Positions 10,076 to 54,605 of a stretch of DNA of 64,000 nucleotides are shown piece by piece. Origin of the DNA: an uncultured Pseudomonadota bacterium (lineage in GTDB: Bacteria; Myxococcota_A; Polyangia; Fen-1088); contig CAWHRJ010000015.1 in NCBI GenBank assembly GCA_963831685.1, positions 62,305 to 126,304 of the forward strand, read 5' to 3'. Each line of letters opens with the position of its first letter. Position 1 is the first letter of the stretch. The position numbers and the translations under genes are program-made. Below the pieces are notes generated by a model that made no database searches, was not told where the DNA came from, and saw only the letters and a list, made by a program, of their open reading frames with translations.

Positions 10076-10085
10076 AAAGGCAAGA

Positions 10086-11314
<1,229 letters not shown>

Positions 11315-11318
<4 letters not shown>

Positions 11319-31717: not shown

Positions 31718-32287
31718 ATGAGATGGAGGGCGATGGGGGCACTGGGGCTGCTGGTCGGGATCGTGGCTGGCGCGGGTCGGGCGCGCGCGGATGAGGCGAA
31801 GCCCCCGCAGAACGTGAAGGCCGAGCCGTCGACGCCCGCGTCGGCCGAGCTCTCCAGCCGCGCGGCCAGCGCCGACATGGCCGGCAATCCGCAGTACGGG
31901 GTGTCGCTGGCCGATCGCGCGATCCGCGCCGACCCCAAGGATCCCTGGCCCTATTACAACAAGGGGATGGCGCTGGCGCAGGCGGGCGAGATCGACGGCG
32001 CGCTGGCGGCGTTCGTCGCGGCCGAGCAGCACTTTTCGCCGACCGATCGCTGGGGGCGCTCGGTCGCGGCGTTCGGTCGCGCGCACACGCTGGCGATGGC
32101 GGGCCGGTGCGCCGAAGCCCGGCAGGCCTTCGACGCTTACGCTGCCTTGAACAGCGCCGACGAAAACGCGGTCAAGTTGGCGAAGCGCTACAGCTCCGAT
32201 TGCGAGGCCTCCGCGCGGTCGTCCAGCGCCCCGACGCCGGCGCCCGCCGCGCCGCCGTCGGAGACCGGCGCTCCGACGGGGAAATGA
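31718..32287 (+). CDS. TPR-like secreted protein (hypothetical)
   Basis: ATG preceded by GGCAGGAGGGGA. Signal peptide MRWRAMGALGLLVGIVAGAGRARA. TPR-like YYNKGMALAQAGEIDGALAAF. Confidence 0.5.
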   Translation: MRWRAMGALGLLVGIVAGAGRARADEAKPPQNVKAEPSTPASAELSSRAASADMAGNPQYGVSLADRAIRADPKDPWPYYNKGMALAQAGEIDGALAAFVAAEQHFSPTDRWGRSVAAFGRAHTLAMAGRCAEARQAFDAYAALNSADENAVKLAKRYSSDCEASARSSSAPTPAPAAPPSETGAPTGK

Positions 32288-32294
32288 GTCCCCG

Positions 32295-32987
32295 CTAAGG
32301 AAATTGCGGGCGCGGGAAGTCGGGAGGCGACATCCGTGCCGGCACCGGCAGGGGCGCGCTGCGCGCCGGCGCGCCGACGCGCCAGGCGCTCGCGCCCGGC
32401 GGCAGGTGCGCCAGGTGGTAGCGCCAGGCCGCCCAGGTGGCGAGCCCCATCCCGCCCAGCAGCGCCGCCGCGGTGCCGAAGGCCCAGGGGATGAGCGCCG
32501 CCGGGGCGAGGCCCCGCGACGGCAGCCGCACGGTCGCCTCGCAGAGCGCGAGCTCGTTACCAGGCGCGCGGAAGGGGCCAGCCCCGAAGTGAAGATCCTG
32601 GAGAAGACCGTCGGCGGTGACGGCGTCGCCCGCGCGGATGATGACCTCCTCCACGGTGACGGCCCCCCGGAAGCCGAACACGCGCGCCACCGCCACGGCG
32701 CCTGGCGTCCCGGCGCGGTGGAGGGTCGGGGTCGCCTCGATGCGCGCGGTCTCCGGATCGAGCTGGATGCGAACGGCCGGACGCCCGGTTTCGGGCGCGC
32801 CGCCCCAGGCGAGATCGAACGTCTCGGGCGAGGCGAGGTCGTGGACGAGCTCGGTGTGCGCGGTCAGGTGCTCGGTGACGCGCAGCCGCCAGTGAACGCA
32901 CGGCTGACCCGAGGCGGGCGCGCGCAGCAGCTCCTGCCGCGGCTCCGCGAGCGCCTCCAGACTGACCAGCGACGCACCGTCGGTCAT
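32295..32987 (-). CDS. hypothetical protein with C-terminal TM, co-transcribed with NtrC-family regulator
   Basis: 230 aa with an ATGA overlap with the regulator stop (32984..32987). [29 protein letters not shown]. No family confidently recognised. Confidence 0.45.
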
Positions 32988-34441
32988 CGCGACCCTCCGT
33001 TCTCCGTTTCGCCGGGCGGCGTGCCTCCGGCCGCGTACTCCTCGAGCTTGCGGTAGAGCGTCTTGCGGTCGAGCCCCAGTCGCTGCGCCGCGCGGGTCTT
33101 GTTCCCGCCCTCGGCGGCGAGGACGCGCTTGATGTATTCGCGCTCCAGCTCGTCGAGGGTGAGGCCGCGCGCCACCGCCGCGCCGAGGTCGTCCTCGCTG
33201 GTGGCCCGCCGCTCGCGAACGATCGGCGGCAGGTCCTCCGATTGCACCAGGGCGTTTTCGGTCAGCGCCACCGCGCGCTCGACGACGTTCTCCAGCTCGC
33301 GAACATTGCCCGGCCAGCCGTACGCGAGCAGCGCCTTGCGCGCCGTCTCGTGAAATCCACGGACCTCCTTCCCCGCCTTGGCCACGTTGCGGGCGAGGAA
33401 GTGCTCGGCCAGGTCGAGAATGTCCTCCGGGCGATCGCGCAGCGCCGGCAGGTGGAGGTGGACGCCGTTGAGGCGGTAGTAGAGATCCTCGCGGAAGGTC
33501 CCGTTGCCGAGCCGCGTCTCCAGATCCTTGTTGGTCGCCGCCACCACGCGGACGTCGATCTTCTCGCTCCGCGCGGCGCCGAGCGGTCGGATCTCCCCCT
33601 CCTGGAGCACGCGCAGAAGCTTCGCCTGCAGCGCCGGCGACAGCTCGGCGATCTCGTCGAGGAAGAGCGTGCCCCCGTCGGCCTCGACGAAGAGCCCGCC
33701 CTTGTCGCTGCGGGCGTCGGTGAAGGCGCCGCGCTTGTAACCGAACAGCTCGCTCTCGAGCAGCGTGTCGGGGATGGCGGCGCAGTTGAGCGGCACGAAC
33801 GGCCGCTCGCGCCGCGGGCTGTTGAAGTGGATCGCCTTGGCGACCAGCTCCTTGCCGGTCCCCGAGGCGCCGGTGATGAGCACCGCGATCGACGAGCCCG
33901 ACAGGCGCCGGATCACGCCGAACATCTCCTGCATCGGCGCCGAGCGGCCGATGATGTTTCCCCAGCGGTAGCTCTTCTGCACCTCGTCGCGCAGGCGCGC
34001 GACCTCGGAGCGCAGCGCGCGCTCGGCCAGCGCCTTGTCGACGGAGAGGTTCAGCTGGTCGACGTCGAACGGCTTGGTGATGTAGTCGAACGCCCCCAGC
34101 TTGACGGCCCGGATGGCGGTGTCGATCGATCCGAACGCCGTGATGGTGATGACGTGGGGCGACGGCGTGACCGCCTTGATCTCGCGCAACATGTCGAGCC
34201 CGTCGAGGTCGGGCATCTTGACGTCGGAGACGACCAGGTCGATTCCTCCCTGGCGCACCCGCTCGACGCCGGCCCGGCCGCCGGCGGCCACCTCGACCGC
34301 GTAGCCGTCCTCTTCCAGAACCTCGCGCAGGAAGGCGCGCATCGACGCGTCGTCCTCGACGATGAGGATGGTCGCCCGACCCGCCCCGCCCGTCGCGAGC
34401 GGCTCGGCTTTGGGAGAGGCGGTGGTCGCGGGTTCAGCCAT
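32984..34441 (-). CDS. sigma-54-dependent Fis-family response regulator (NtrC-like)
   Basis: REC ([19 protein letters not shown]), AAA+ ([42 protein letters not shown]) and [25 protein letters not shown]. Confidence 0.85.
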
Positions 34442-34462
34442 TCGGTACGCGCGCGTTCAAAC

Positions 34463-36093
<1,631 letters not shown>

Positions 36094-36170
36094 CGCGCGG
36101 CCAGTATAGCTCCCGGGCGGAGCCGGGTTCCGTCCACGCGCTGCGTGCTATAAAGACGGCGCAGCAGCCC

Positions 36171-36422
36171 ATGACGCCCGACGACATCAGCGCGCGCATC
36201 CGCACCGCGCTCCCCGACGCGGAGGTGCGGGTCGTCGACACCACCGGCGGCGGCGACCACTTCTCCGCGACGGTCGTGTCGTCTGTCTTCGCCGACAAGG
36301 GGCTCGTCGACCGGCACCGGCTGGTCTACGCGGCGCTCGGCGAGGTCATGCGCGGCCCCGCCGCGCCGATCCACGCACTGGCGCTGACCACCGAGACGCC
36401 CGAAGAATACCGACGCAAATAG
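36171..36422 (+). CDS. BolA family protein
   Basis: 83 aa. GGGDHFSATVVSSVFADKGLVDRHRLVYAAL...IHALALTT. Confidence 0.75.
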   Translation: MTPDDISARIRTALPDAEVRVVDTTGGGDHFSATVVSSVFADKGLVDRHRLVYAALGEVMRGPAAPIHALALTTETPEEYRRK

Positions 36423-36431
36423 GAGCCAAAC

Positions 36432-36744
36432 GTGACTGAGCCGCTCAAGCAACGCATCGCCGAGACCATCGCCAAAGAGCGTGTCATGCTGTTCATGAAG
36501 GGCAACCCGCCGATGCCCCAGTGCGGCTTCTCGGCCGCGGTGGTCGGCATGCTCAAGGAGGTCGGCGTCCCGTTCGAGTCCGTTCAACATCCTCGCCGAC
36601 CCGGAGCTGCGCGAGGGCCTCAAGGAGTACTCGAGCTGGCCGACCTACCCGCAGCTCTACGTCGACGGCAAGCTCGTCGGCGGCGCCGACATCGTGCGCG
36701 ACCTGCACGCGCGCGGCGAGCTCAAGAAGCTCATCGCCGGCTGA
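36432..36744 (+). pseudogene. grxD: Grx4-family monothiol glutaredoxin, one frame change near 36588
   Basis: [34 protein letters not shown], then the conserved continuation [52 protein letters not shown] is in another frame (stop 36742..36744). Confidence 0.8.
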
Positions 36745-36776
36745 CGCAGCCCTGGTGGGCCGGGCTCCCCGGCTGG

Positions 36777-37187
36777 TCAGGGCTCGATCAGCACGAGGCG
36801 CTTGAAGTAATCGCGGTAGTAGCCGCGATCCCGGGCGAGCAGACGGTCGGCCAGGACGGTCGCGTGCGCGCCAATCAAAAAGTCCGGAACGACACGCCGG
36901 GGACCTGACGGGCGCCGGCGCGCCAGGTAGGCCCCGAACATCGCGCCGGCCAGCGCCGCGCTCTCTTCAGTCGCAGGGACGAATTCGACACCCCAGTCGC
37001 GCAGGAGGTCGCCGACCTCCGATCCGCGTCCGCCGATCGCGGGAGCGATCTCGGCGACGACGCACTCACCGACGATCAGCGCCCCTTCGGAGGCGCACTG
37101 GCGAAGGGCGGCCTCCGACCGCGCCGCGTGCCGGGGATCGGCCATCAGCAGGTCCAGGACCACGCTGCTGTCAATCGCGGTGCGCAT
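36777..37187 (-). CDS. vapC: type II toxin-antitoxin system VapC-family PIN-domain toxin
   Basis: 136 aa with MRTAIDSSVVLDLL (first acidic PIN residue) and DFLIGAHA. Overlaps vapB by 17 nt. Confidence 0.7.
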   Translation of the reverse strand: MRTAIDSSVVLDLLMADPRHAARSEAALRQCASEGALIVGECVVAEIAPAIGGRGSEVGDLLRDWGVEFVPATEESAALAGAMFGAYLARRRPSGPRRVVPDFLIGAHATVLADRLLARDRGYYRDYFKRLVLIEP

Positions 37188-37404
37188 CGCGAGCCAACCG
37201 CAGATAGGCGTCGACCGATGGGGCGCCCGGAAGCCGGCCGCGCCCCCGCCAGCGCGAGAACGGGTCGGCCGTGTCGGTCTTTTGGCCGATGAGTTTTCCG
37301 CCGACCGCCTCGAACGACAACACAGTTCCTGGCCGCAAGCCCAGCCGATCCCGCACCCCCTTGGGGATCGTCACCTGGCCCTTTTCGGAAACGATCGATT
37401 TCAT
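37171..37404 (-). CDS. vapB: AbrB/MazE/SpoVT-family antitoxin (VapB)
   Basis: 77 aa. SEKGQVTIPKGVRDRLGLRPG is the swapped-hairpin AbrB-type motif. Confidence 0.7.
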   Translation of the reverse strand: MKSIVSEKGQVTIPKGVRDRLGLRPGTVLSFEAVGGKLIGQKTDTADPFSRWRGRGRLPGAPSVDAYLRLARDAHRD

Positions 37405-37431
37405 ACTTGTACTGTAGTAATTCCTACCTGA

Positions 37432-38272
37432 TCAGTCAACCGACAGAGGTCCTTGGCTCTTGGGACCGAGCGCCTCGGCGAGGGCGTTCACCAGGCGCCG
37501 CATGACGAACCCCTTGTCGGGGACGACGTCGATCCGGACGCCGCGCCTTTCGAGCGCCTCGACCACAATGGGCCCTATCGCCGCCACCCGAGCACGCGCG
37601 AGCGCTCCCAGGAGCCGCTCTTCGAGCCTCGCGATGTTGGCGACCTGAAACAGCCGGTCGACCTGTGAGGCGCTGGTGAAGGCGATAGCGTCGATCCGGG
37701 CGCCGTCGAGCGCGTCGATGAGCGCCAGCACCGCCGCTGCGTCGCTGGCCGAGGCGTAGACGTAGGGCGCCACTGTCCGCACGGTCGCCCCCGCACGCTC
37801 CAGCGCCTGCACCAAGGGCCGGTTGGGCTCCTCGCCGTAAAGCTGCAAGCCGACGCGCCGGCCGCGCAGATCGAGCGCCGCCAGCGCGTCGATCACCCCG
37901 GCCGAGGTCGGCACCGCCGCCGCCAGGTCGGACGCGAGGCCGATCTCGTGCAGCGCGCGCGCCGGCTTCGGTCCGCGGGTCACCTTCCGCACGCGTCCGA
38001 GCGCGGCCACCACCGCGTCGCGGAGCTCGATGCGCTCCGCGATGGTCAGCAGTCGCCGCAACCCCTCGCCGGTGAGGAAGACGACGTCGTCGAATCTCGC
38101 CCGCCACCAGCGCGCGCAGCCAGGCCTCCGACGGCCCGGGATCGGGCGCATCGTGGATCGCGACCAGCGGGCAGCGCAGCGCCTTGCCCCCCGCGTGCTC
38201 GACCAGCTCGGCCAGGCGATCCAGCTCGCGCGCCTCGGGAAGCGCGATCGTTCGTCCCGCCAGCGGCTGCAT
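37432..38272 (-). pseudogene. hemD: uroporphyrinogen-III synthase, one frame change near 38095
   Basis: The N-part MQPLAGRTIALPEARELDRLAELVEHAGGKALRCPLVAIHDAP is in ORF 37436..38272. The rest, FDDVVFLTGEGLRRLL...IDAIAFTSASQVDRLF..., is in ORF 37432..38151. Confidence 0.7.
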
Positions 38273-38331
38273 GATCCCCGTCGATACTTTTAGGGTATGG
38301 TCCCGTCCCCAGCAACCACGGAAACGACGCG

Positions 38332-39336
38332 ATGGCGACCAAACAGACCAAGACCCCCGATAAAAAGACCGCCGCGAAGGCCGAGACCAAGGCGGCCGAC
38401 CTCAAGGTCGATCCCGCCCTGGCGCGCACCCGCCTCGCGGCCACCGGGCGCAACGACGCCTGCCCCTGCGGCTCGGGAAAGAAGTACAAGAAGTGCCACC
38501 TCCCGGCCGACGAGCAGGCCGCCGCGCCGGCGCCCGAGGCGCCCGACGCGCAGGCGCTGGTCACCGAGGGGTGGCGCCTGTTCGAGCAGCGCCGCCCGGG
38601 CGCCGCCGAGAAGGAGTTCCGCGCGGCGCTGGCGATCGACGCCAAGCTGGAGGACGCGCACGTGGGGATCGGGATGGCGCGTCTTTCGGCCGGGAACGCC
38701 GACGGCGCGAAAGAGGAGCTGGGGATCGTGCTCGCCTCGGGTGAGGCGGCGGCGGAGAAGATGAAGGCCGACGGCGTCAAGGATGCCTTCAGCAAGCCGG
38801 AGGCGCAGCCGTTCATCCGCGCGGCGCACGCGCTCGGCTGCCTGGCCTACGACGAGGAACGCTACGAGGAGGCGGTGAAGGATCTGGCGCGCGTGCACGC
38901 GATCGACGAGGGCAGCGTCGGGGTCGAGGCGCGCCTCATCGCCGCCAAGGCGCTCATGAAGCTGGAGCGTCCGGCCGAAGCGGCGGCGCTGCTCGGGCCC
39001 GCGACGAAGATCGAAGAAGGAAAAGGACGCGCCCAGCTGGGCCTCGCGCTCGCCGAGTTCGCCGCCGGCAACGAGGCCAAGGCGCGCGCCGCTCTGACGA
39101 CCGCGCTCGACGCCAACCCGCACCACGGCAAGACGTTGCTTGGCCGCGTCCGCCGTCGGGTGGAGAACCTGGCCGGCGCTCGCCCCGGGTCGCTCGAGGA
39201 GGCGCTGCTCTACGCGCAGACCTACGGCGACGTCTGGACCGACCCCGCCAAGAAGTTCCTGGAGACCGTGCTCGACGAGCGCGCGCGCAGCCAAAAGTCG
39301 GCCGCCGAGGACGAAGGCGCCGCCGCGCCCGCCTAG
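38332..39336 (+). CDS. SEC-C metal-binding motif protein with TPR-like repeats
   Basis: GRNDACPCGSGKKYKKCH near the N-terminus, followed by TPR-like helical repeats. The TAG stop is part of the CTAG abutting the mobile element. Confidence 0.6.
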   Translation: MATKQTKTPDKKTAAKAETKAADLKVDPALARTRLAATGRNDACPCGSGKKYKKCHLPADEQAAAPAPEAPDAQALVTEGWRLFEQRRPGAAEKEFRAALAIDAKLEDAHVGIGMARLSAGNADGAKEELGIVLASGEAAAEKMKADGVKDAFSKPEAQPFIRAAHALGCLAYDEERYEEAVKDLARVHAIDEGSVGVEARLIAAKALMKLERPAEAAALLGPATKIEEGKGRAQLGLALAEFAAGNEAKARAALTTALDANPHHGKTLLGRVRRRVENLAGARPGSLEEALLYAQTYGDVWTDPAKKFLETVLDERARSQKSAAEDEGAAAPA

Positions 39337-39368
39337 ACGACGCCTCTCACGATTCGTCACATCTTCGG
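39337..39368 (+). repeat. left terminal inverted repeat of the IS-like element
   Basis: See the mobile element entry; read directly from the sequence. Confidence 0.75.
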
Positions 39369-39426
39369 GACGCAAACATCCGCGGATTCAAGTGGCTGCG
39401 ACCCGCGCAGGGCAACATCCGCGGAA

Positions 39427-40125
39427 TCAAGTTGGGTGCGCGCGCGGCGCCGAGGCAGGGTGCTCCTCGACCCGCAAAGGACCGCCCGCGCGCCTCCATC
39501 CGACGCGCGCCATCCAGGTGGCCGGCGGCGCCGTCGCCGGAGGAGCGCCGGTGATCGCGGGCGCGCGCTGCCACCCCGAAAAGTGCGGCCCCGAGCTGCG
39601 CAGGTCGATGCACGCGGGCGCCCGGAGGTGCTTGCGGAAATTGAGCAGCACGTAGACCAGGCTGGTCCGCATCTGGCGCGGCGTGGTCAGCTGGCGCGCG
39701 TGATAGCGGTCGCCAACGACCTGCCCTTTGCGTCCGAGGGCGCGGTTGACCGCCAGTGCCAACCGGATCGCCAGGCCGTGCATACCCCCGCGGGCGCGCC
39801 GGGCCTCGTCCCCCTCGACGATGAAGTGGCCGTGGTCCTGCTGGATAGAGAAGTGGATCACCCGGAACCGATCGACCGACGCCCGCGCGATGGCGCGCCG
39901 GAGCGCCCCGAACACGCGGGGCGAGCGGAGCGACGGCAGCCCAGGCGTCGCGCGAATCGTGACCTGCACCGGGTATCGCGGATTGACCTTCGACCGGGTG
40001 TCGTGGGGCATCGAGGGACGGCCGCGCGGTTTCCGCCCGGCGCCCTTGCGAGCGCCACCCCACGTGCGTGGTACCCCGAGGGGCAAGTCGAGCTGACGCC
40101 GTCGCACCGTCTTGATTCCGCGCAT
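39427..40125 (-). CDS. IS200-like / REP-associated tyrosine (Y1, HUH) transposase family protein (COG1943)
   Basis: 232 aa. YPVQVTIRATPGLPSLR, HUH-type FSIQQDHGHFIVEG and Tyr motif SLVYVLLNFRKH. The start and stop codons each lie inside a copy of the subterminal repeat. Confidence 0.7.
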   Translation of the reverse strand: MRGIKTVRRRQLDLPLGVPRTWGGARKGAGRKPRGRPSMPHDTRSKVNPRYPVQVTIRATPGLPSLRSPRVFGALRRAIARASVDRFRVIHFSIQQDHGHFIVEGDEARRARGGMHGLAIRLALAVNRALGRKGQVVGDRYHARQLTTPRQMRTSLVYVLLNFRKHLRAPACIDLRSSGPHFSGWQRAPAITGAPPATAPPATWMARVGWRRAGGPLRVEEHPASAPRAHPT

Positions 40126-40306
40126 GTCCCGTTGTCGGCGCAGAGCGCGGCGGGTTGCGTGGGGCGAGGCCGGACGACCGCTAGGACCGCGGCGCTCGCG
40201 TGACTTGATTCGGCGGAGGTGCGGTCGGCGGAGTTGGGGACCGCCGATGGGTTGGGCGCGTCGGCGCGCGGACGGCTCGACCTTGATTGCGCGGATCTTG
40301 GTGCCG

Positions 40307-40338
40307 CCGAAGATGTGACGAATCGTGAGAGACGCCGT
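40307..40338 (-). repeat. right terminal inverted repeat of the IS-like element
   Basis: See the mobile element entry. The outermost 6 nt plus CTAG plus flank form a 16-nt perfect palindrome CGCCGTCTAGACGGCG. Confidence 0.75.
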
Positions 40339-40348
40339 CTAGACGGCG

Positions 40349-41311
40349 CTACATCCCGTTGCGGCGGAGAATCTCGCGGGCCTTCGCCTTGTCCGCGGTG
40401 AACGTGAAGGCCTCGTCGAGGCCGAAGGCCTTCTCGGGATCGACCAGACGCGGGGCGCCGAGCTCCAGCACCCGCAGCTTCGTCGCCGAAAAGGAGACCA
40501 GGTCGATCAGGGTCTTGAGCTGCCCGACCCGGAAGTAGTTGCGGGTGGCCGCCTGCCGAACGACGCCGATCTGCCCCTCCGAGAAGCTCTCGTTCTTCAC
40601 TGCGGCGACGAGCGCACGGAACGCGCCCTCGTCCATTGGGCGAGGTGGCTCGGGGCGCGCCTCGCGCGGCGGCGGGGGCGGCGGAGGCGGATAGCTCGGT
40701 GGTGGCAGCTCCCGCGAGGGATTCCGGCGGGTCGTACGGACGCCGCATCGGCGCCGGCCGCGGCGGCGCCTCGAGGGCGTGCGGCTCGAGGCTCCAGAGC
40801 TGATCCGCGCCGCCGTCGCAGGCCCACAGCATCACGTTGTCGCCGCGCGCGCCCGCGCGTCCGTTCACGTCCAGGCAGAGGCCCCGCTTGTTGTTGTGCA
40901 GCTCGAACGTCCCGGGCCCGCGCGGGACCAGCGTCCACCGCTGATTGTCCAGGCTCTCGCAGCGGTAGATGTCGACGTTGGCGCCAGGCGCGCCGTCGTA
41001 GCCGGCCGCGTCCAGACAGGTCCCGTTGAGCATGTTCCGCAGCTCGCCGTCCGGCGTGAACGACCAGACCTGGTCGGGATTGCCGTTGCACTCCCACAGC
41101 AGGACGTTGGAGCTTTTGGCCCCGGCCCAGCCGTCGACGTCGAGGCACATCGCCTGCGCGGCGTTGCGCAGCCGTCCCGGCCCCGACGGCGGCGGAACGG
41201 CCAGCGGTCCGTGATGCCGCCGCGCCTCGGCGCGGCCCCCGGCGAGCGCCGTGGCGAGGAGAGCGAGGGCAAGGTGGGCCGGGCAACGGAGGACATGGAA
41301 GCCCTTGCCAT
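40349..41311 (-). pseudogene. secreted ricin-type beta-trefoil lectin + DUF4476 protein, about 2 frame changes
   Basis: Signal-like AHLALALLATALAGGRAEA. Three QxW repeats (DQVWSF, NQRWTL, DQLWSL) in the frame of ORF 39858..41528, a Pro-rich linker, then ORF 40349..40636 (FRALVAAVKNESFSEGQIGVV...LIDLVSFSATKLRVLE), which is DUF4476-like. The in-frame ATG at 41311 is in a different frame from the signal peptide. Confidence 0.55.
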
Positions 41312-41368
41312 CGACCCATCCGCGGTCTCGCTTGAGCTGCCCGCTCCCGCGGCCGGCGCTGGTGGCGC

Positions 41369-42010
41369 CTACTTCTTCGCCGGCTTCTTCGCCGACTTCA
41401 CTTCGGCCAGCCAGTCCTCGATCTTCTTCTCGTCCGCTTGTCGAGCTCTGCGGTCTGCTCGTCGAGCGCCTTCTTGTCGCCGGCGAACGACATCTCGAGC
41501 GCATCGGGATAGTCGTTGGCCAGCGCATTCAGCATGACGTCGTAGTCGGTCACGACGTTCGAGTTCCCCCCCTTGGAATCGATTGTCGCCATCTTCTTCC
41601 CGGTCGCTTCGATTGCCTTCTGCTGCTTGACCCGGACCGTCTCGACGTCCTCCTTGGTCTTCGCGTGGGCGTAGGCGGCGCGGTATTTCTGGATGTCGGC
41701 GAACACCGCCTTATGAAGCGGCAGCTTGGTCTTGTCGTAGGCGAGCAGGCGGTCGTGCTCCGCGCCCGCCAGCTCTGCGGCCAGCTTCTTCTCCGCCGCC
41801 TGGCGCTTGGCGATCGTTGGCCAGCGACAGCCCGTCGGGGTTGGCGACCATCTTCGGCTTGGCGGCCGCGTCGGGCGTCGGCGCCGCCGCCGCCGGGGGC
41901 GGTGTCGGTGGGGCGGCGGGCGGCGGCGCGGGCGGCGCCTCCTTCGAGCAGGCGACGCCCATTCCCATCACCAGGACCAACGTCGAGACGAAGCTCGCTG
42001 CTCGCATCAT
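41369..42010 (-). pseudogene. hypothetical lipoprotein, 2 frame changes
   Basis: GGGAGGTGG RBS, MMRAASFVSTLVLVMGMGVACSKE lipobox and a Pro/Ala linker (ORF 41711..42166). It continues as ...KAVFADIQKYRAAYAHAKTKEDVETVRV... (ORF 41398..41706) and ends ...DEKKIEDWLAEVKSAKKPAKK-stop in a third frame. Confidence 0.5.
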
Positions 42011-42228
42011 CCACCTCCCGCGCCCAAGCGGCGCCGGCGCAGTATCGGGGAGCGCGCCCGCGGACGCAACCTCCGCGCGTGGACGCAACTTCTGGACGTC
42101 CGGGAAGCACGTCGCTGGACGTCCAACGCCCGAGGAGGACGAGACGGAGGGGCGTCCGACAGCCAAAACCCGCGCGCTCGTTCTGGCCCCGACCTTGCTG
42201 AGTCCAGGGCGTGCTCAAAGGAGAATTC

Positions 42229-42940
42229 ATGAAGCGACGGGGCCGCGTCATCGGGGGCGAGATTGCGATTCTGTGCGCTGCCATTCTTGGAGGCTGCGGC
42301 GGCAACGCGCCGGCGGTCGGTACCGAGCGAGGGGCTTGCCTCGCGGGCGGCGTCTGCGGGAGCGGGCTCGTCTGTCTGTCGGACGTCTGCGTGCGGCCGA
42401 CCGCCGGGAGCGATGGCGGCCTTGCCGCGAGCCCGCTCGTCGTCTCGACGGCGACGCGCACGCCACGGACGACGACCACCGGGGTCAACTACTGGCTGTG
42501 GATGCCAGCCTTCGGAGACGACGTCACCGGAACAGACACGCTGGTGGCGGCGCTCAAGCCGACGCTGATGCGCGTCGGCGGCTACAACAACGACGCCAAC
42601 ACCCAGGATCCGTTCGACGACGCCGCATTCGACACGGCGGTCGCCTACGCCCGTGCCATCGGCGCCGAGCCGATCATCCAGGTTCCGCTTCTGGCGGACA
42701 CCAGCGGGAAGCCACCGACGGCCGCGACCGCCGCCGGGATGGTCACGTACGCCAACGTCACCAAGGCGTACGGCCTCAAAGACTTCTCCGATCGGCAACG
42801 AGCCCGACCTCTACGTGTCGCAGGGGCTGGTGGCCGACCCGACGCAGCCGGCGATCCCGGGCTACACCCCGGCCGCCTACTGCGCGACGGCGAGCGCGTA
42901 CGTCGCGGCGGCGCTCCTGCTGGAGCACCGCCGGATTTGA
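42229..42940 (+). pseudogene. glycoside-hydrolase-like lipoprotein (clan GH-A style NEP motif), one frame change near 42788 and 3' truncated at the junction
   Basis: AAAGGAGAA RBS, MKRRGRVIGGEIAILCAAILGGCGG lipobox, YWLWMPAFGD and LMRVGGYNNDAN. After the shift it reads IGNEPDLYVSQGL...GYTPAAYCATASAYVAA. Credible coding ends near 42910, far short of a full catalytic domain. Confidence 0.5.
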
Positions 42941-43066
42941 ATAAGTAAGTAGTCAGCAAACCGGCAACGCGGCGTCTTCGACGCACGCTCCGACTGCCTA
43001 CAAGAGCGAGAGTTTTGTCCAGCTGTGCGGATAACAAATGTGGACAATTCGCCGCACGGCGCAAAA
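42905..43066. other. junction/linker between two compositionally and taxonomically different segments
   Basis: Neither flanking gene continues into it in any frame. Contains TGAATAAGTAAGTAG (42938..42952; stops in all three forward frames) and a TTGTCCA-N19-TGGACAA hairpin (43014..43046). Confidence 0.7.
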
Positions 43067-43678
43067 CCAGATGATGTCGCCGCCATGCTCGCGGTGATAC
43101 TTCGACATCGAGCCTTCGCCGGTGTCGTGCGCGAAGTTGCCTTTTTTCGCGCCGAGGTTCAGCGCCATGATTGCGTTCGCCGACAGCGAGCCGAAGCTCA
43201 TCGCGGAGACGTTGAAGATCGACATCGAATAAGGCTGCGCGCGATCTGGGCCGACGACGATGCGGAAGTCGTGACTGTCGAGCGTGGTCGGCGCGAGCGA
43301 GTGGCTGATCCACTCGTGCGCGATCGCTTTGACATCCAGTTCGGTCCCATACGGGCGGCTATCGACGTCGTTCTTCGCGCGCTGGTAGACGATGCTGCGC
43401 TGCGCGCGCGAGAACGGCTTTTCGTCGGTATCGTTTTCAACGAAATACTGGCGGATTTCCGGACGGATGAACTCGAACAGGAAGCGGAAGTGACCCCACA
43501 GCGGATAGTTGCGCAGAATCGCGTGGCGCTGCTGCGTCAGATCGAACAGGCCGAGCGCAACGAGCGCGAGCGGCACGATGATCCAGAACCACGCGAGGCG
43601 ATGCGTGATGGCGAGCGCCGCGCAGACGGCGAGCAGCGCGACTGCGCACCACATCGCCAGATAACGTCGAGAAAACAT
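43067..43678 (-). pseudogene. FMN-binding glutamate synthase family protein, N-terminal ~204 codons only (3' truncated)
   Basis: MFSRRYLAMWCAVALLAV...RHAILRNYPLWGHFRFLFEFIRPEIRQYFVENDTDEKPFSRAQRSIVYQRAK...FNVSAMSFGSLSANAIMALNLGAKKGNFAHDTGEGSMSKYHREHGGDIIW. ORF 42998..43678 then runs into unrelated sequence. Full-length family members are more than twice this size. Confidence 0.7.
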
Positions 43679-44009
43679 GGGGACTCCAGTGCAGTGAAGA
43701 TCGTCGCGGAGGGATCGCCGACGCTGTCGGCGCAGACGGAATCCGCCGCGAAGGAAACGGGCCGCCGCGGATCAGCGCGAAGCGGGCGTCGGCCTCGCGT
43801 GGCCTCGCGCGCTGGCCCGTGCGGACGAAGCCATGCACAAGGCAGCGGCCGGGCAAATCTGAAGATGAGGCATGCGAACGAATGACAAGCGTCGCACGCG
43901 AAGGTGAAGGGTGTGTGAATGGCGTGCAAGGGAGGGGCGCAACGGCTGGTGCGAGTGAGGCAAACACGCCAGGCGTGTCGGACCCGCGCCGCTTGCCCCT
44001 TTGCATCGC

Positions 44010-45278
<1,269 letters not shown>

Positions 45279-45290
45279 CTACCGCGATGT

Positions 45291-45769
45291 TTACCGTTTT
45301 GGCCCGACCGAATGCGTATGCACGAAGTCGAGCGGGAAACGCCGGCCGGCGAGGTAGTCGTCGATGCATTGCATCACGAGCGGCGTGCGGTGCCGTTCAG
45401 GACAGGCGCGCAACTCGTCGGCGCTCATCCACAGCGTGCGAACGATGTCGGGATCGAGCGCGCGCGCTGCATCGGGTGCGCCGCCCGTGCCGCAATAGGT
45501 GAAGCGCAGATAGGTGACGCCTCACTGCCGGGCCGCTCGAAGTGGGTCATGTACATGCCGACCAGCGCCTCGGGCGCGAACGGATGGGCGGTTTCCTCGA
45601 GCGTTTCGCGGATCACCGCCTGCAACAGCGTTTCGCCCGCCTCGAGATGGCCGGCGGGCTGATTCAGGCGCAGGCCGTCGGCGGTATGTTCCTCGACCAC
45701 GAGGAAGCGCCCGTCACGCTCGACGATCGCCGCGACGGTGACGTGCGGCAGCCAGGTTTCCGGTTTCAT
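45291..45769 (-). pseudogene. NUDIX hydrolase, one frame change near 45520
   Basis: Nudix box GHLEAGETLLQAVIRETLEETA in ORF 45425..45769. The C-terminal third (VTYLRFTYCGTGG...LWMSADELRAC...DYLAGRRFPLDFV) is in another frame, with the stop at 45291. Confidence 0.75.
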
Positions 45770-45972
45770 GGCTGCGCATTTTACCGGTTATGGGCCTGGG
45801 CTGCCGGGAAGCGGCCACGGCGGCCAGGCGCGGGCACCCCCGGATTGTCCCCGATTCTTGTGCCCCCCCTGGTTTCGGTTAAAGTGAGGCGTTAGCCGTT
45901 GCAATTGCAGGTGCAAGCCGGCGTGCCTCGTCGGCCAATCTGTCGTCAAACAGGAAGTCGAGGAGGAGCACG

Positions 45973-47115
45973 ATGCACATCGGAGTGCCAGCCGAGACGC
46001 GCGCGGACGAAACACGCGTCGCCGTCACGCCCGAAACGGTCAAGAAGTACGTGACCCAGGGCCACCGGGTCACATCCAGAGCGGCGCCGGCGCTGGCGCG
46101 AGCTTCCAGACGAGGCCTTTACGGCCGCCGGCGCCGAGATCGTCGACCGCGGCCACCGCCTTCGGCGCCGATCTCGTCCTCAAGGTGCGTCGCCCACCGA
46201 CGACGAACTGCCCTGATGAAGCGCGGCGCGACGCTGGTCGGGCATGCTCAATCCGTTAATACCGAGAACTCATCAAAGCTGGCCGCTGCCGGCGTCACCG
46301 CGTTCGCGCTCGAGGCCGCGCCGCGCACCACGCGCGCGCAGAGCCTGGACGTGCTGTCGTCGCAGGCCAACATCGCCGGCTACAAGGCCGTGATGATCGC
46401 GGCCGACAACTACCGCGCCTGTTCCCGATGCTGATGACCGCCGCCGGCACGGTCAAGGCGGCGCGCGTCGTCGTGCTGGGCGTGGGCGTGGCCGGCTTGC
46501 AGGCGATCGCCACCGCCAAGCGCCTGGGCGCGGTGATCGAGGCGACCGACGTGCGGCCGGCCGTCAAGGAGCAGGTCGAGTCGCTCGGCGCCAAGTTTCA
46601 TCGACGTGCCCTACGAGACCGAGGAAGAGCGCGAAGCCGCGCGAGGGCGTCGGCGGCTACGCGCGGCCGATGCCGCCGTCGTGGCTCGACGCGCCAGACG
46701 GCGCAGGTCCACGAGCGGGCGACGCAGGCCGACGTGGTCATCACCACCGCGCTGATTCCGGGCCGCGCCGCGCCGATGCTGATCACGGAGGACATGGTGC
46801 AGGCGATGAAGCCCGGCTCGGTGATCGTCGACCTCGCCGCCGGCCGCGGTCCGGAGTACGAAGGCCAGCGCGGCGGCAACTGCCCGCTGACCGAGGCGGA
46901 CAAGGTGGTCGTCAAGCACGGCGTGCACGATCGTCGGCGAGACGAACCTGGCGGCGATGGTGCGCCGCCGACGCGTCGTCGCTCTACGCGCGCAACGTGC
47001 TCGACTTCCTCAAGCTGATCATCACGAAGGAAGGCGCGTTGAACATCGATCTCGCGGACGACATCGTCGCGGCTACCTGATGGCGCGTGACGGCGAAGTC
47101 ACACGCAAGGCCTGA
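45973..47115 (+). pseudogene. pntA: NAD(P) transhydrogenase subunit alpha part 1 (PntAA), at least 8 frame changes
   Basis: MHIGVPAETRADETRVAVTPETVKKYVTQGH; AFALEAAPRTTRAQSLDVLSSQANIAGYKAVMIAADNY; MLMTAAGTVKAARVVVLGVGVAGLQAIATAKRLGAVIEATDVRPAVKEQVESLGAKF; ADVVITTALIPGRAAPMLITEDMVQAMKPGSVIVDLAAGRG; ASSLYARNVLDFLKLIITKEG, scattered over three frames. The last shift (ACC-CTG read as ACCTG near 47078) creates a premature TGA. Confidence 0.85.
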
Positions 47116-47142
47116 AGCAAATAACTATCTGGGAGAACGGCG

Positions 47143-47467
47143 ATGGAAGTCATCAACCACACCGTCATCAACCTGATCATCTTCGTGCTGGCGATCTACG
47201 TCGGCTACCACGTGGTCTGGAACGTCACGCCCGCGCTGCACACGCCGCTGATGGCGGTGACCAACGCGATCTCGGCGATCGTGATCGTCGGCGCGATGCT
47301 CGCCGCCGGGCTCACCGATCGGCGGCCCCGGCAAGTTCTTCGGCACGCTCGCGGTCGCGCTCGCGGCGGTCAACGTGTTCGGCGGCTTTCTCGTGACCCG
47401 ACGAATGCTGGAGATGTTCCGCAAGAAAGAGCCGAAGAAGCTGCCCGCAGCCAAGGAGAACGCGTAA
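47143..47467 (+). pseudogene. pntA: NAD(P) transhydrogenase subunit alpha part 2 (PntAB), one frame change near 47310
   Basis: [53 protein letters not shown], then hand-translated [37 protein letters not shown] in another frame. The TAA overlaps the pntB ATG. Confidence 0.8.
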
Positions 47468-48922
47468 TGAGCCTGAACGTCGTCACGCTGCTTTATCTGG
47501 TCGCGTCGGTCTGCTTCATTCAGGCGCTCAAGGGGCTGTCCAATCCGAAGACGGCGCGCGTCGGCAATACCTTCGGCATGGTCGGGATGGCGATTGCGAT
47601 CGTCACGACCATCGCGCTGATCGTCAAACAGGCGACCGCGCTCGGCTCGAACCTCGGTCTGGGGCTCGGCCTGCTGCTGGTCGCGCTGGTGATCGGTGGC
47701 GCGGTCGGCGCGTTCGTCGCGGCGCGCGTCGAGATGACCAAGATGCCGGAACTGGTCGCGGCGATGCACTCGCTGATCGGTCTTGCCGCCGTCTGCATCG
47801 CCGTATGCGGTGGTGTCGGAGCCGGCTGCGTTCGGCCTCGTCGATCCCGAGTATCCGATTCCGGGCTTCCTGCCGTTCGGCAATCGCATCGAACTGTTCA
47901 TCGGCACGTTCGTCGGCGCGATCACGTTCTCCGGTTCGGTGATCGCGTTCGGCAAGCTGTCGGGCAAGTACAAGTTCCGCCTCTTCCAGGGCGCGCCGGT
48001 GGTCTATGCAGGCCAGCACCTGATCAACCTGTTCCTTGCGATCGCGATGCTCGGCTTCGGCATCATCTTCTTCCTCACGCAGTCATGGTTGCCGTTCATC
48101 ATCATGACGATCATCGCGTTCGTGCTCGGCGTGCTGATCATCATCCCGATCGGCGGCGCGGACATGCCGGTGGTCGTGTCGATGCTGAACTCGTACTCGG
48201 GCTGGGCGGCGGCGGGCATCGGCTTCTCGCTGAACAATCCGATGCTGATCATCGCGGGCTCGCTGGTGGGTTCGTCGGGTGCGATCCTGTCGTACATCAT
48301 GTGCCGCGCGATGAACCGTTCGTTCTTCAACGTGATCCTCGGCGGCTTCGGCAACGAGCCGGGCGCGGCGGCGGCGGGTGGCGCGGCGGAGCAGCGTCCG
48401 GTGAAATCCGGGTCGGCGGATGACGCGTCGTTCATGCTCGGCAATGCGGAGACCGTGGTGATCGTGCCGGGCTATGGTCTGGCGGTGGCGCGTGCGCAGC
48501 ATGCGTTGAAGGAGCTGACCGACAAGCTGGTCGAGAAGGGCATCGAGGTGAAGTACGCGATTCACCCGGTGGCCGGCCGGATGCCGGGGCACATGAACGT
48601 GCTGCTCGCCGAAGCCGAGGTGCCGTACGACATGGTCTACGAAATGGACGACATCAACGGCGAGTTCGGTCAGGTCGACGTGGTGCTGGTGCTCGGCGCG
48701 AACGACGTGGTGAATCCGGCCGCGAAGAACGATCCGAAGTCGCCGATCGCGGGCATGCCGATCATCGAGGCGTATAAGGCGAGGACGGTGATCGTCAACA
48801 AGCGCTCGATGGCGGCGGGTTATGCCGGGCTCGACAACGACCTGTTCTACATGGACAAAACGATGATGGTGTTCGGTGATGCGAAGAAGGTTATCGAAGA
48901 TATGGTGAAAGCGGTGGAATGA
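47467..48922 (+). pseudogene. pntB: NAD(P) transhydrogenase subunit beta (PntB), one frame change near 47803
   Basis: [34 protein letters not shown]... (frame of ORF 47143..48423), then [12 protein letters not shown]...[21 protein letters not shown]...VPGYGLAVARAQH...HPVAGRMPGHMNVLLAEA... to the stop (ORF 47783..48922). Confidence 0.85.
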
Positions 48923-48990
48923 GCGCGGCGAGGAGATCGCGGGTTGCACTACTGGAAGCACGTGCGCCCGCGATTTTCACCCGCTTCGTC

Positions 48991-49677
48991 TCACTTCGGC
49001 TTCGCGTTCACATGCCGCAACAGGTCCGCGAGCCGGCGGCCTTCCTGGTCCGGATACAGTTCGAGCACCTGAAGGTCGTCGATCTTCTCCAGCCCGAAAT
49101 TGCGAAAGTCGCAGCGCAATTCGCACCACGCACCCAGCGTCCAGCGCGCGCCCCAATAGGCGAGCGCGAGCGGCCAGACGCGGCGCTCGGTCGCCGCGCC
49201 GCTCGCATCGGTGTAGGCGAAGCGCACCACGTGGCGCGTGTCGATCGCGCGATGCAGCGCATCCAGTTGCGCCGAAAAATTCCCTTTGATGTGAAACGAC
49301 GGCGCGAAAATCGCCAGCTTTTCTAGTGTCGCGCGTTTGTCGGCGGGCATCGCCGAGGCGATTTTCGCGAGCGCCCCGCGCGCGCCGCTCGCGAAGCCCG
49401 CACCGCCCCACGATTCGAGCATGCGCGCGCCCGCGGCAATCGCGGCCAGTTCGTCGGCGGTGAAGGTGAGCGGCGGCAGGCTCGCCGTGCGGCTCAACCG
49501 ATAGCCGATGCCGGCCTCGCCTTCGATCGGGACCCCTGATAACTGCAGATCGCGCACATCGCGATAGACGGTGCGCAGCGAAATGTTCAACCAGTCGGCG
49601 AGTTGTTGCGCGGTGGTCAGGCGCCGTCCGCGCAGCAGTTCGGCGATCTGGAACAGGCGGTCGGCGCGGCGCGTCAT
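48991..49677 (-). CDS. YafY-family transcriptional regulator (HTH + WYL domain)
   Basis: MTRRADRLFQIAELLRGRRLTTAQQLADWLNISLRTVYRDVRDLQLSGVPIEGEAGIGYRL. WYL part RFAYTDASGAATERRVWPLALAYWGARWTLGAWCELRCDFRNF. Confidence 0.8.
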   Translation of the reverse strand: MTRRADRLFQIAELLRGRRLTTAQQLADWLNISLRTVYRDVRDLQLSGVPIEGEAGIGYRLSRTASLPPLTFTADELAAIAAGARMLESWGGAGFASGARGALAKIASAMPADKRATLEKLAIFAPSFHIKGNFSAQLDALHRAIDTRHVVRFAYTDASGAATERRVWPLALAYWGARWTLGAWCELRCDFRNFGLEKIDDLQVLELYPDQEGRRLADLLRHVNAKPK

Positions 49678-49812
49678 CGTGGGCGTCTTGTAGAAGAGGA
49701 CGGGAACGGTCCCGCGATGATAGCGCCGCATACCGCGCTCCGCTCGAGGTTCACTGTGGCGCCCGCTGCCGCGTCGCGCGCCGCGTGGCGAGCTGTGGCG
49801 CCGTGTCGAGGT

Positions 49813-50196
49813 TCAGCCGTTGGTGCGCGAATGCAGGCCGAGGCGGTTGCCTTCCGTATCGGTGAAGAAAGCGATGTAGCCGATGTCTTGCGGCAGCTTG
49901 ATCACGGGGCCGTCGACCTTGCCGCCGGCTTGCTCGACACGGGCGAGGGCGGCGTCGACGTTCGGCTGCGCGGTCAGATAGACGATCACGCCGTCGCCGG
50001 TCGGGGTCATCGACGGGCTGTGGACGATCGCGCCGCCGGTGGCCGGTTCTTCGTAGCCGAACACGGCGATCGGCTGGCCGCCGATTTCCTGGCGATTGAG
50101 TTTGGTGTCGAGCGCGGCTTCATAAAAGCGGACGGCGCGATCGAAATCAACGGACGGAATCTCGAACCATGCAACAACCTTGGATGACGTGGACAT
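49813..50196 (-). CDS. VOC (glyoxalase/bleomycin-resistance/dioxygenase) family protein
   Basis: Internal ATG with AGGAGAG upstream. VAWFEIPSVDFDRAVRFYEAAL...GYIAFFTDTEGNRLGLHS. Confidence 0.75.
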   Translation of the reverse strand: MSTSSKVVAWFEIPSVDFDRAVRFYEAALDTKLNRQEIGGQPIAVFGYEEPATGGAIVHSPSMTPTGDGVIVYLTAQPNVDAALARVEQAGGKVDGPVIKLPQDIGYIAFFTDTEGNRLGLHSRTNG

Positions 50197-50588
50197 GACA
50201 CTCTCCTGTGGATGGCGGGTAAGCCGTGCAAAGCGCCGGATGGCGTGAGAAGGAGTGTGCGGGGGTGCTGCTGACAGCGTGGTGTCAGTAGGGTGTGGCA
50301 GCAGGTGGGTTTGGGAAAGAGTGGGTAGTGGGGCGCGGTGGCGGTCAGGGTGGGGATTGGGGCCGCGAGTTGCGCGCTTGCGCATGGCAGTAATGAGCCG
50401 TTAAGACGCCGCACAAGCGGTCGGCTGCGCACCGCGGAATGCGCAACGCGTAATGCGCAATGCGGAGCGCGGCGCGAGGAAAATCGGCCAGCATGCGCAT
50501 CGCGCACCCAAGTGCATTGCGCCAAGCGATCGTCATTCAAGCCGCTGGTGTATCGCGCTACGCTCGCCGCATTCCGCATTGCGTCAGC

Positions 50589-50625
50589 AAAAAAAAACCG
50601 CGCAACCCAAAGGTCCGCGGTTTTC
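50589..50625 (-). terminator. rho-independent terminator downstream of the THUMP methyltransferase gene
   Basis: On the minus strand, AACCGCG-gacctttgggtt-GCGCGGTT is followed by T9. It also forms a weaker plus-strand terminator (T4). Confidence 0.75.
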
Positions 50626-50681
50626 ATTGCCGTGCTACGGCGCGCCTCAAAGGCTTTGCGCCAAGCGCCTGAAGCGCCCTC

Positions 50682-51977
50682 TCAACCCGCCGGCGTATCG
50701 TTCTGCTGCGGTCGCTGACGCACGCTGCCCGCGATCAGATCGAAGCGGAACAGCCGGCATTCGAGCGCGCCGTTAAAGAGCGGCGTCTTGGTCGACTCGC
50801 GCAAACGCAATTGCCCCGGCAGCTTGCGATCCGACGTCAGAATGAACGCGTGCCAACCCGTGAAGCGCTGCTTCAACGCATCCCCGAGCGACTGGAAAAA
50901 TTCGCTGTCCGGCGTTTCTTCCTGAGCGCGGCGAAAGCTGTCGTCGTCGCGGCTATCGCGATTGCCGCGGCCTTCGCGCAGCTCGCCGCGCGCGTTGCGG
51001 CCCCGCACTTCGATCCGCTCGCCGTACGGCGGATTGGCGACGAGGATGCCCGCGGCGGACGACGGTGGCGTCATGCCGCGCGCATCGACCTGCTTGAGCG
51101 GAATCGACGGTAAGCCGGCGCGCTGGAAGTTCGCGCGCGCCTTGTCGAGCATATCGCCGGAAATATCGCTGCCGAAAATTTGCAGATCGGCGCGCGAGCT
51201 GCGCGCGGCGTGCTTCGCGTCGAGCGCGGCCGCCTTGAGCGTCTGCCAGGTCTTGGCGTCGAACTGCTTGAGCTTCTCGAAGCCGAAGCGGCGTTCCGCG
51301 CCCGGCGCGATGTTCAGCGCCACTTGCGCGGCTTCCGCGAGGAACGTGCCGCTACCGCACATCGGGTCGTACAGCGGCGTGCCGGCGCTCCAGCCGGTCA
51401 GACGCAGAATGCCCGCCGCGAGATTCTCGCGCAGGGGCGCCGCGCCCTTGTCGAGGCGCCAGCCGCGCTTGAACAGCGGGTCGCCGGATGTGTCGAGGTA
51501 CAGCGTGCAGTCGGTGGCCGTGAGAAACGCGAACACGCGCACGTCGGGCATGCCGGTGTCGATACTCGGCCGCGCGCCGCTGACTTCGCGCAGGCGGTCG
51601 CAGATCGCGTCCTTCACTCGCAGCGTGGTGAATTCGAGGCTGCGCAGCGGCGACTTGATCGCGGTGACGTCCACGCGCAGCGTTTCGTTCGCCGAGAACC
51701 ACTGTTCCCAACGTTGCTCGACCGCGAGCGCGTAAATGTCCTGCTCGCTACGATACGGCCGATGTGCGATCTTCAGCAGCACGCGGCTCGCGAGACGCGA
51801 ATGCAGGTTGGCGGCCATGCCGGCGGCCCAGCCTCCGCGGAAATGCACGCCGCCCGGCACTTGTGCGCCGGCCGTGAACGGCGCGCCGTTCAGGTGTTTG
51901 GCGGCGATTTCGGCGAGTTCGGCCGCGAGCGAGGCTTCAAGGCCGCGTGGGCAAGGGAGGAAGAAATCGAAGGACAT
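50682..51977 (-). CDS. THUMP domain-containing class I SAM-dependent RNA methyltransferase (RlmL/RlmK N-domain-like)
   Basis: 431 aa. MSFDFFLPCPRGLEASLAAEL..., APLRENLAAGIL, LYDPMCGSGTFLAEAA and VANPPYGERI. Confidence 0.8.
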   Translation of the reverse strand: MSFDFFLPCPRGLEASLAAELAEIAAKHLNGAPFTAGAQVPGGVHFRGGWAAGMAANLHSRLASRVLLKIAHRPYRSEQDIYALAVEQRWEQWFSANETLRVDVTAIKSPLRSLEFTTLRVKDAICDRLREVSGARPSIDTGMPDVRVFAFLTATDCTLYLDTSGDPLFKRGWRLDKGAAPLRENLAAGILRLTGWSAGTPLYDPMCGSGTFLAEAAQVALNIAPGAERRFGFEKLKQFDAKTWQTLKAAALDAKHAARSSRADLQIFGSDISGDMLDKARANFQRAGLPSIPLKQVDARGMTPPSSAAGILVANPPYGERIEVRGRNARGELREGRGNRDSRDDDSFRRAQEETPDSEFFQSLGDALKQRFTGWHAFILTSDRKLPGQLRLRESTKTPLFNGALECRLFRFDLIAGSVRQRPQQNDTPAG

Positions 51978-52095
51978 TGAGGTTGCCGGAAGGCGTTAGA
52001 TAAGGCGCTATTGTACGCGGTCGGGGTGAGCCGCCATGCTCGATTGCATGGCGGTGGGGTCGCGCGGGCTTGCGAGCTGGCGCGGCGCGCGCTTG

Positions 52096-54222: not shown

Positions 54223-54389
54223 GTTTTTGCCTGCGGAATGTGTGCGACGTGTCAAAGGATCGGTTAGTTTTCCCTGGCTTTCCTTGATAACGCCAGCCCG
54301 AACTTTGATTATGACTTGGGCCCGGTCGAGGGAGCGGCGTTGTCGTTCGAGAGGAAAGGAAAAGTGATCAATGTGAAGTCGAGAAGTTC

Positions 54390-54605
54390 GTGGATGGCAA
54401 GCGCGAAGCATCGTTCAGCGTGCCGGTCGTCGTTCTGCGGATCGCCAACGCGGTGTTGCCCAGCGCCGCGGTAGGGGCGCTGGCGAGTCGTGACCTGAAT
54501 GTGCGGCAGCTTCTGGAAGCGAGAAGCAGCGGCTCCGGCTATCGGGCGACGTTGAATGTGCGCGAACGCGGTTTGACGAAGAAGATCGTGGTGTCGCTGG
54601 AGTAA
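54390..54605 (+). CDS. hypothetical small protein (weak call)
   Basis: 71 codons from GTG with consistently high GC3, in an otherwise 730-bp gap. No convincing RBS and no family recognised. Confidence 0.3.
   Translation: MDGKREASFSVPVVVLRIANAVLPSAAVGALASRDLNVRQLLEARSSGSGYRATLNVRERGLTKKIVVSLE

Follow-up and report, generated by a model that had tools for sequence, protein, structure and literature searches.

The DNA analysed here, a window of 64,000 nt (64 kb) to which all positions below refer, belongs to a 129,121-bp public contig that is very probably a chimera of two unrelated soil genomes, arising either in a read or during assembly. A Polyangia (Myxococcota) chromosomal segment occupies positions 1-42,904 and a Paraburkholderia chromosomal segment positions 43,067-64,000, and taxonomy, composition and synteny switch between them. 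The break on the right, at 43,066/43,067, is, judging from the related contigs in which it recurs, a natural insertion junction of a mobile element, and therefore only the left junction, at ~42,905-42,913, would be an artificial join. A first-pass annotation of this DNA had favored a chimeric assembly as the leading explanation; the changes in taxonomy, composition and synteny, together with the lack of any independent sequence containing the junction, support that choice.

Composition and gene content on either side of the break

An abrupt taxonomic and compositional break near 42.9 kb, accompanied by a difference in codon usage across ~43 kb, had been described from the sequence before this analysis, and composition, homologues and synteny all agree with that description. 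An unsupervised trinucleotide Jensen-Shannon change-point scan with no prior partition gave a single smooth maximum across the 64 kb, at position 42,930. Mean GC content steps at the breakpoint from ~0.715 on the left to ~0.65 on the right (0.67-0.78 and 0.60-0.71, respectively, in 1-kb bins), and confident ORFs have a GC3 of 0.90-0.945 before it and 0.82-0.88 beyond it. Composition, gene-level taxonomy and the nearest-relative synteny of each half all change inside ~160 nt, and both of the genes beside this linker are truncated.

Assignment of the left segment (1-42,904) to a Polyangia chromosome is based on Pfam domains, homologues, GC content and collinearity with L002, a 1.14-Mb contig of a Polyangia metagenome-assembled genome (MAG), to which positions 32,158-42,910 align in the same order with 81-86% nucleotide identity. 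The segment encodes RmuC, a mevalonate cluster, HpnC squalene synthase, sigma-54 enhancer-binding proteins and a SEC-C/TPR protein. Myxococcota-style content, including a mevalonate pathway with IDI-2 and sigma-54 enhancer-binding proteins, had been claimed for this side, and both the Pfam results (RmuC, type-2 IDI-like protein, mevalonate kinase, diphosphomevalonate decarboxylase, a second GHMP kinase, HMG-CoA reductase and sigma-54 activators) and the Polyangia homologues bear this out. HpnC (11.3 kb) is 84% identical to proteins named 'Polyangia bacterium', and the names of the homologues place genes at both 11 kb and 42 kb in the Polyangia. The mevalonate cluster on this side, at 6,114-12,352, looks complete (type-2 IDI-like protein, mevalonate kinase, diphosphomevalonate decarboxylase, second GHMP kinase and HMG-CoA reductase), with HpnC directly after. 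Separately, a stretch of ~2.1 kb (39,280-41,383), 2.8 kb from the join, is missing from L002, an indel difference between related genomes; an ORF at 39,427-40,125 (-, 232 aa) gave a weak, sub-threshold match to a REP-associated tyrosine transposase (E = 6e-4), and a DUF4476 ORF lies within the stretch at 40,349-40,636 (-).

The last gene of the left segment is the 5' half of a GH-like lipoprotein gene (42,211-42,910, +), recognized from its ORFs, homologues and alignment. Its named homologues are 'glycosyl hydrolase' proteins of 'Polyangia bacterium' and 'Polyangiaceae bacterium', and the full-length ones among those listed are 413-421 aa long. Alignment to a 419-aa homologue (P0139) stops at residue 212/419, leaving ~207 C-terminal codons missing, as expected from the earlier claim that the gene loses its C-terminal half near 42,910. 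The fragment also contains an internal +1 frame error at ~42,788-42,789, where it has an extra C relative to L002, and the ORF after this error reads into a TGA at 42,938-42,940. Nucleotide homology to L002 ceases between 42,904 and 42,913, and this alignment, taken with the change-point at 42,930, defines a break zone at 42,905-42,913 as the probable chimeric join.

The right segment (43,067-64,000) is assigned to a Paraburkholderia chromosome on the basis of collinearity with L003, Pfam domains, alignment to L004 and a GC content of ~0.65. Its genes include mnmA, a NUDIX gene, pntA/pntB, a THUMP methyltransferase gene, a gene for a PF10136 protein, an MFS transporter gene and secF. Positions 43,067-53,537 are collinear with L003, a 64-kb Paraburkholderia contig with the gene order mnmA, pntA, pntB, THUMP methyltransferase, PF10136, at 81-91% nucleotide identity. 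A 771-aa ORF at 52,096-54,411 (-), previously called as pqi, is instead a full-length member of the PF10136 'Site-specific recombinase' family (E = 6e-216); because a PF10136 gene, in fragments, occupies the same place in L003, this ORF is chromosomal and has no relation to the junction.

Directly beside the linker on this side are codons 1-204 of an FMN-binding glutamate-synthase-family gene (PF01645, gltS-like; 43,067-43,678, -), identified by comparison with homologues, L003 and the proteins P0005 and P0124. The closest proteins to this fragment come from Paraburkholderia sp. and P. nemoris MAGs, with 94% identity or membership in the same 90% cluster. Identity to L003 begins at 43,067, and in L003 the PF01645 gene is intact (~1.57 kb), with a Methyltransf_21 gene, glyQ and glyS after it. 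The fragment is cut after ...GGDIIW, and intact, longer relatives read on as ...GGDIIW-EIASGYFG, in keeping with the earlier description of a remnant of ~204 N-terminal codons ending at 43,067. Alignments to the 419-aa homologue, L002 and L003 thus confirm that halves of both genes have been lost, and neither the missing half of the GH-like gene nor that of the gltS-like gene was found anywhere in the 64-kb window; the downstream neighbors seen in L002 and L003 likewise had no match there. On the other side of the gltS-like fragment, the sequences of the window, L003 and L004 cannot be aligned in the interval from the start of this gene to mnmA (43,758-44,088), though both flanking genes can; the intergenic stretch measures 329 nt in the window and is shorter in L003 (191 nt) and L004 (244 nt).

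A recurrent insertion point within the PF01645 gene

The two truncations had been attributed to one event, and the right-hand cut contradicts this: independent contigs (L001, L004 and an 8.9-kb JGI contig) show the same cut as at 43,067 along with the neighboring 40 nt of linker, so the two truncations do not share a single origin. The gene is interrupted after GGDIIW in the window and in all three of these contigs. Two proteins from independent JGI metagenomes, P0005 and P0124, end in ...GGDIIW-FCAVH*; P0005, found in two samples on contigs of 7.3 and 8.9 kb, is 80% identical to the window protein, and P0124 is a member of the window protein's own 90% cluster. L004 (1.5 kb) has 94% nucleotide identity to the window over the PF01645 gene and the same mnmA neighbor, and L001 (7.3 kb) has 81% nucleotide identity to the window and a different upstream neighbor.

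Alignment of the window with L001 and L004 revealed a conserved arrangement beyond the Trp codon, in which TTTTGCGCCGTGC is followed by 9 variable bases and then by TCCAnATTnGTTATCCGC (15/18). The terminal 13-nt block, TTTTGCGCCGTGC, which lies at 43,054-43,066 (-) and adjoins the Trp codon of the interrupted PF01645 gene, is identical in all three sequences. The 18-nt end motif, which in the window reads TCCAcATTtGTTATCCGC (43,027-43,044, -), agrees with L001 and L004 in 15 of its 18 positions and probably represents a recombinase-binding site. The conserved end as a whole, TTTTGCGCCGTGC-N9-TCCAnATTnGTTATCCGC, occupies positions 43,027-43,066 of the window, 1,407-1,446 of L001 and 1,377-1,416 of L004.

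Past the cut, L001 has a GC content of 0.57 and encodes a divergent XRE-type repressor (PF01381), small unknown ORFs, a 321-aa protein with an excisionase-type HTH (HTH_17, PF12728, TIGR01764) and a DUF4326 protein. The corresponding empty site is found in L003 and in many homologues, which read on as ...GGDIIWEIASGYFG. The window and L004 have the truncated gene, L003 (91%) has it whole, and in L001 (81%) it is again truncated; this pattern implies either repeated integration at one nucleotide or precise excision, and hence the behavior of a site-specific integrative element. In the terminal 40 nt, the window and L004 agree only in the motif blocks (28/40) despite 94% identity in the adjoining gene, suggesting that the window carries a distinct member of the element family, and therefore that the remainder of its linker may be that element's own sequence. 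L001 and L004 are 83% identical to each other for at least 100 nt into the element.

No integrase or recombinase gene and no second element end were found in the window, L001 or L004. A search with a degenerate version of the end motif returned no hits from GTDB genomes, IMG/VR or metagenome contigs; the metagenome scan missed even L001 and L004, indicating that the collection scanned did not contain the samples from which they came. The L001 element had no match to phage DNA, its 321-aa protein had no relative in IMG/VR, and its only plasmid or chromid matches, all of them in non-mobile contexts, were to DUF4326 and to a 422-aa hypothetical gene. We also considered that the GGDIIW codon might be a hot spot for contig ends, and rejected this idea upon finding that the ends of partial homologues are spread, with no clear enrichment. 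Another fusion close to this position is encoded on L007 (ENA ERZ1023158 NODE_14896, 2,130 bp), where the gene for P0129 (1,046-1,960) joins gltS-like sequence to the C-terminal part of a class-II fructose-bisphosphate aldolase; its fusion point is after ...GGDI, two codons upstream of the insertion point. L007 is a short-read contig with a coverage of 1.8, and the aldolase fusion is probably another assembly artefact.

Together, these comparisons point to an apparently undescribed family of integrative elements that inserts at one exact codon boundary of a PF01645-type gene in Paraburkholderia and related Burkholderiaceae. The conserved end motif could serve to locate complete copies of the element.

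The linker and the origin of the join

The two segments are connected by a 156-nt linker (42,911-43,066), which we read, from its GC content and end motifs, as the outermost part of the site-specific integrative element. Its GC content of 0.56 is like that of the L001 element (0.54-0.57) and unlike that of both flanks. Positions 43,027-43,066 are, by alignment with L001 and L004, an element end. Positions 42,911-43,026 (GC 0.58) probably also belong to the element, because the window appears to carry a distinct family member, because a GC content of 0.56-0.58 fits, and because the codons at 42,911-42,940, which terminate in TGA, are GC-rich at the third position; this reading frame is consistent with the tail of an element gene. 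The linker has no other match within the 64-kb window. Exact linker strings were absent from GTDB species genomes (40-mer), IMG/VR (24-mer and 30-mer) and JGI metagenome contigs (29-mer), all of them incomplete collections.

Two features of the linker had attracted attention in the first-pass annotation. The reported cluster of stops in all three forward frames is there, as TGAATAAGTAAGTAG at 42,938-42,952 (+), and it is the sole three-frame stop cluster inside a 15-nt span on either strand of the 64 kb. A hairpin had also been proposed, and the inverted repeat on which it was based is present (TTGTCCA at 43,015-43,021 and TGGACAA at 43,041-43,047), but the linker folds only marginally better than shuffled sequences (z = -1.98). 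No promoter or terminator consensus was found in the linker, Rfam returned nothing at gathering score in the whole window and nothing at E <= 1 between 42.8 and 43.2 kb, and no tRNAs were found. Given the empty Rfam result, the lack of a consensus and the weak hairpin, we rejected an sRNA, riboswitch or terminator as an interpretation of the linker.

The densest frame errors had been reported to straddle the junction. Our heuristic identified candidate frameshift blocks at 0-1, 14.3-15.7, 34.7-38.1, 44.4-47.8 and 55.4-58.6 kb; errors are patchy throughout the window and densest in the last of these blocks. In mnmA, which is split over at least 4 frames, the 3' part (44,086-44,533) contains ~12 indel events in 448 nt and is 84% identical to L004, in which the mnmA reading frame is intact in the corresponding region. 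Positions 43,027-43,757, which include the gltS-like fragment, show only 1 indel and 94% identity relative to L004, and the ~700 nt on either side of the linker are nearly indel-free relative to relatives. Frame-error density was therefore discarded as an indicator that coverage is low there, since errors do not peak at the linker and the flanks are clean, and the clean flanks likewise fail to bear out the idea that the join depends on a single read.

Both ORFs that span the junctions are recorded on the same 129,121-bp contig. The product of the left one forms a singleton cluster, and the read-through tail of the right one is present in none (0/10) of the other members of its cluster. The closest large relatives, contig_8333 and contig_162690_np1212, have names in the style of long-read assemblers, and the pipelines behind soil assemblies of this kind run Flye in its metagenome mode and polish with Medaka (PMC12313526). 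We infer that the window contig is itself a product of long-read (nanopore) assembly. Its many frame errors also speak for a mis-join in an error-prone assembly. Long-read metagenome assemblers are documented to produce inter-phylum chimeric contigs, the signs of which are sudden shifts in GC content, coverage and gene taxonomy (doi 10.1101/2025.04.22.649783).

The sequence of events that best fits these data starts with a Paraburkholderia chromosome, represented by positions 43,067-64,000, into which a site-specific element, prophage-like or island-like, would have inserted naturally in the PF01645 gene after codon 204. The 156-nt linker would be the outermost stretch of this Paraburkholderia element, and ~156 nt into the element the assembly would jump to a Polyangia genome (1-42,904), landing in the middle of its GH-like gene. 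The cause may have been a chimeric read, or a mis-join by the assembler at a mobile-element boundary that varies among strains. Two observations count against a chimera: no shared repeat that could explain a mis-join by the assembler was found at the join, and the sequence directly beside it lacks the poor consensus quality that support from one read would predict. A ligation-type chimeric read or an assembler mis-step would each still give a clean join.

A variant of this explanation, in which only 43,027-43,066 is an element end and 42,911-43,026 comes from a third genome or was fabricated by the assembler, has in its favor that 42,911-43,026 matched nothing in any collection searched and that long-read assemblers are reported to emit stretches that no read supports, non-existent sequence and chimeras of more than two sources (doi 10.1101/2025.04.22.649783). 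We consider this three-piece origin unlikely, since the GC content of 42,911-43,026 (0.58) agrees with that of the mobile-element DNA of this group and the end motifs in the window are those of a diverged family member rather than of a copy of the L004 element. A diverged member is expected to have a unique interior, and the missing matches are therefore uninformative. More improbable still is a genuine acquisition of DNA between phyla, in either direction. Illegitimate end-joining in the GH-like gene could have brought at least 21 kb of Paraburkholderia chromosome into a Polyangia genome of the predatory myxobacterium type, or the cargo of a Paraburkholderia integrative element could include at least 43 kb of Polyangia chromosome. 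In favor of such a transfer, the contig was deposited as one molecule and its sequence is clean at the join, which is situated 156 nt within the end of a mobile element, so that mobile DNA is present at the junction. Against it, both halves look like unaltered core chromosome, each collinear with a relative over at least 10 kb at 81-91% nucleotide identity, and neither GC nor GC3 shows amelioration. The left half contains housekeeping and regulatory genes, with no mobile-element functions near the join, the Polyangia GH-like gene is cut in the middle of its ORF, only one boundary lies within the 64-kb window, and the join occurs in no other sequence, as indicated by the linker searches of GTDB, JGI and IMG/VR and by the singleton cluster. 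If the join were genuine, with a large block of core chromosome broken inside a mobile element and taken up by the other genome, tens of kb of housekeeping DNA would have crossed between phyla very recently and would still be unameliorated.

That the join was engineered, in which case the linker would be either a transposon mosaic end or the end of a synthetic cassette carrying stops in three frames, is scarcely credible. In its favor, the window has no second three-frame stop string, and the string CGGATAACAA presumably resembles the core of the lac operator. Against it, a blastn search of the linker in PLSDB (72,556 plasmid records) gave no significant match: hits were at chance level only, and the best of them (E = 0.05) fell outside the linker core. 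The distal 40 nt with the GGATAAC motif are seen again at the matching position of the gene in natural JGI contigs of soil type, the source proteins are recorded from NCBI/ENA, and the relatives are metagenome assemblies. The earlier suggestion of an artificial linker is therefore not upheld, and a chimera of a Polyangia genome with an element-bearing Paraburkholderia genome is the explanation we prefer.

A public contig (NCBI, ENA) that very probably fuses two phyla would contaminate any bin that holds it, and could give rise to false claims of transfer, of mevalonate and hopanoid genes to Paraburkholderia or of secDF and pntAB to Polyangia. The chief value of the present analysis is as a quality-control flag on this contig and as a pointer to a small element family.

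Comparison with known chimeras and gene-splitting elements

The window resembles the inter-phylum chimeras described for metaFlye, metaMDBG and hifiasm-meta in having a sudden shift in GC content and gene taxonomy within one contig, and in joining two unrelated genomes head to tail with genes damaged by indels (doi 10.1101/2025.04.22.649783). Those chimeras were defined by read clipping and a step in coverage, whereas the present one is described here from its sequence, and its assembler and read type are inferred.

The ends of the Omega interposon are synthetic cassettes with stops in three frames, and the stops in the linker are likewise closely packed and cover all three frames. The linker differs from the interposon ends in that it has no sequence match, lies in a natural mobile-element context and has its stops on the forward strand only.

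Site-specific elements that split genes include the skin element in sigK, SPbeta in spsM and phi13 in hlb, and islands of the AbaR or Tn6022 type split comM. Unlike these, the element described here has a PF01645 gene as its target and an end, TTTTGCGCCGTGC-N9-TCCAnATTnGTTATCCGC, that was unmatched in our phage, plasmid, IMG/VR and GTDB searches. It shares with the known gene-splitting elements an identical insertion nucleotide across hosts, conserved terminal motifs and an empty site in close relatives; the DNA of lower GC content in L001, with candidate repressor and excisionase-type genes beside the element end, may be accessory DNA of the kind that such elements carry.
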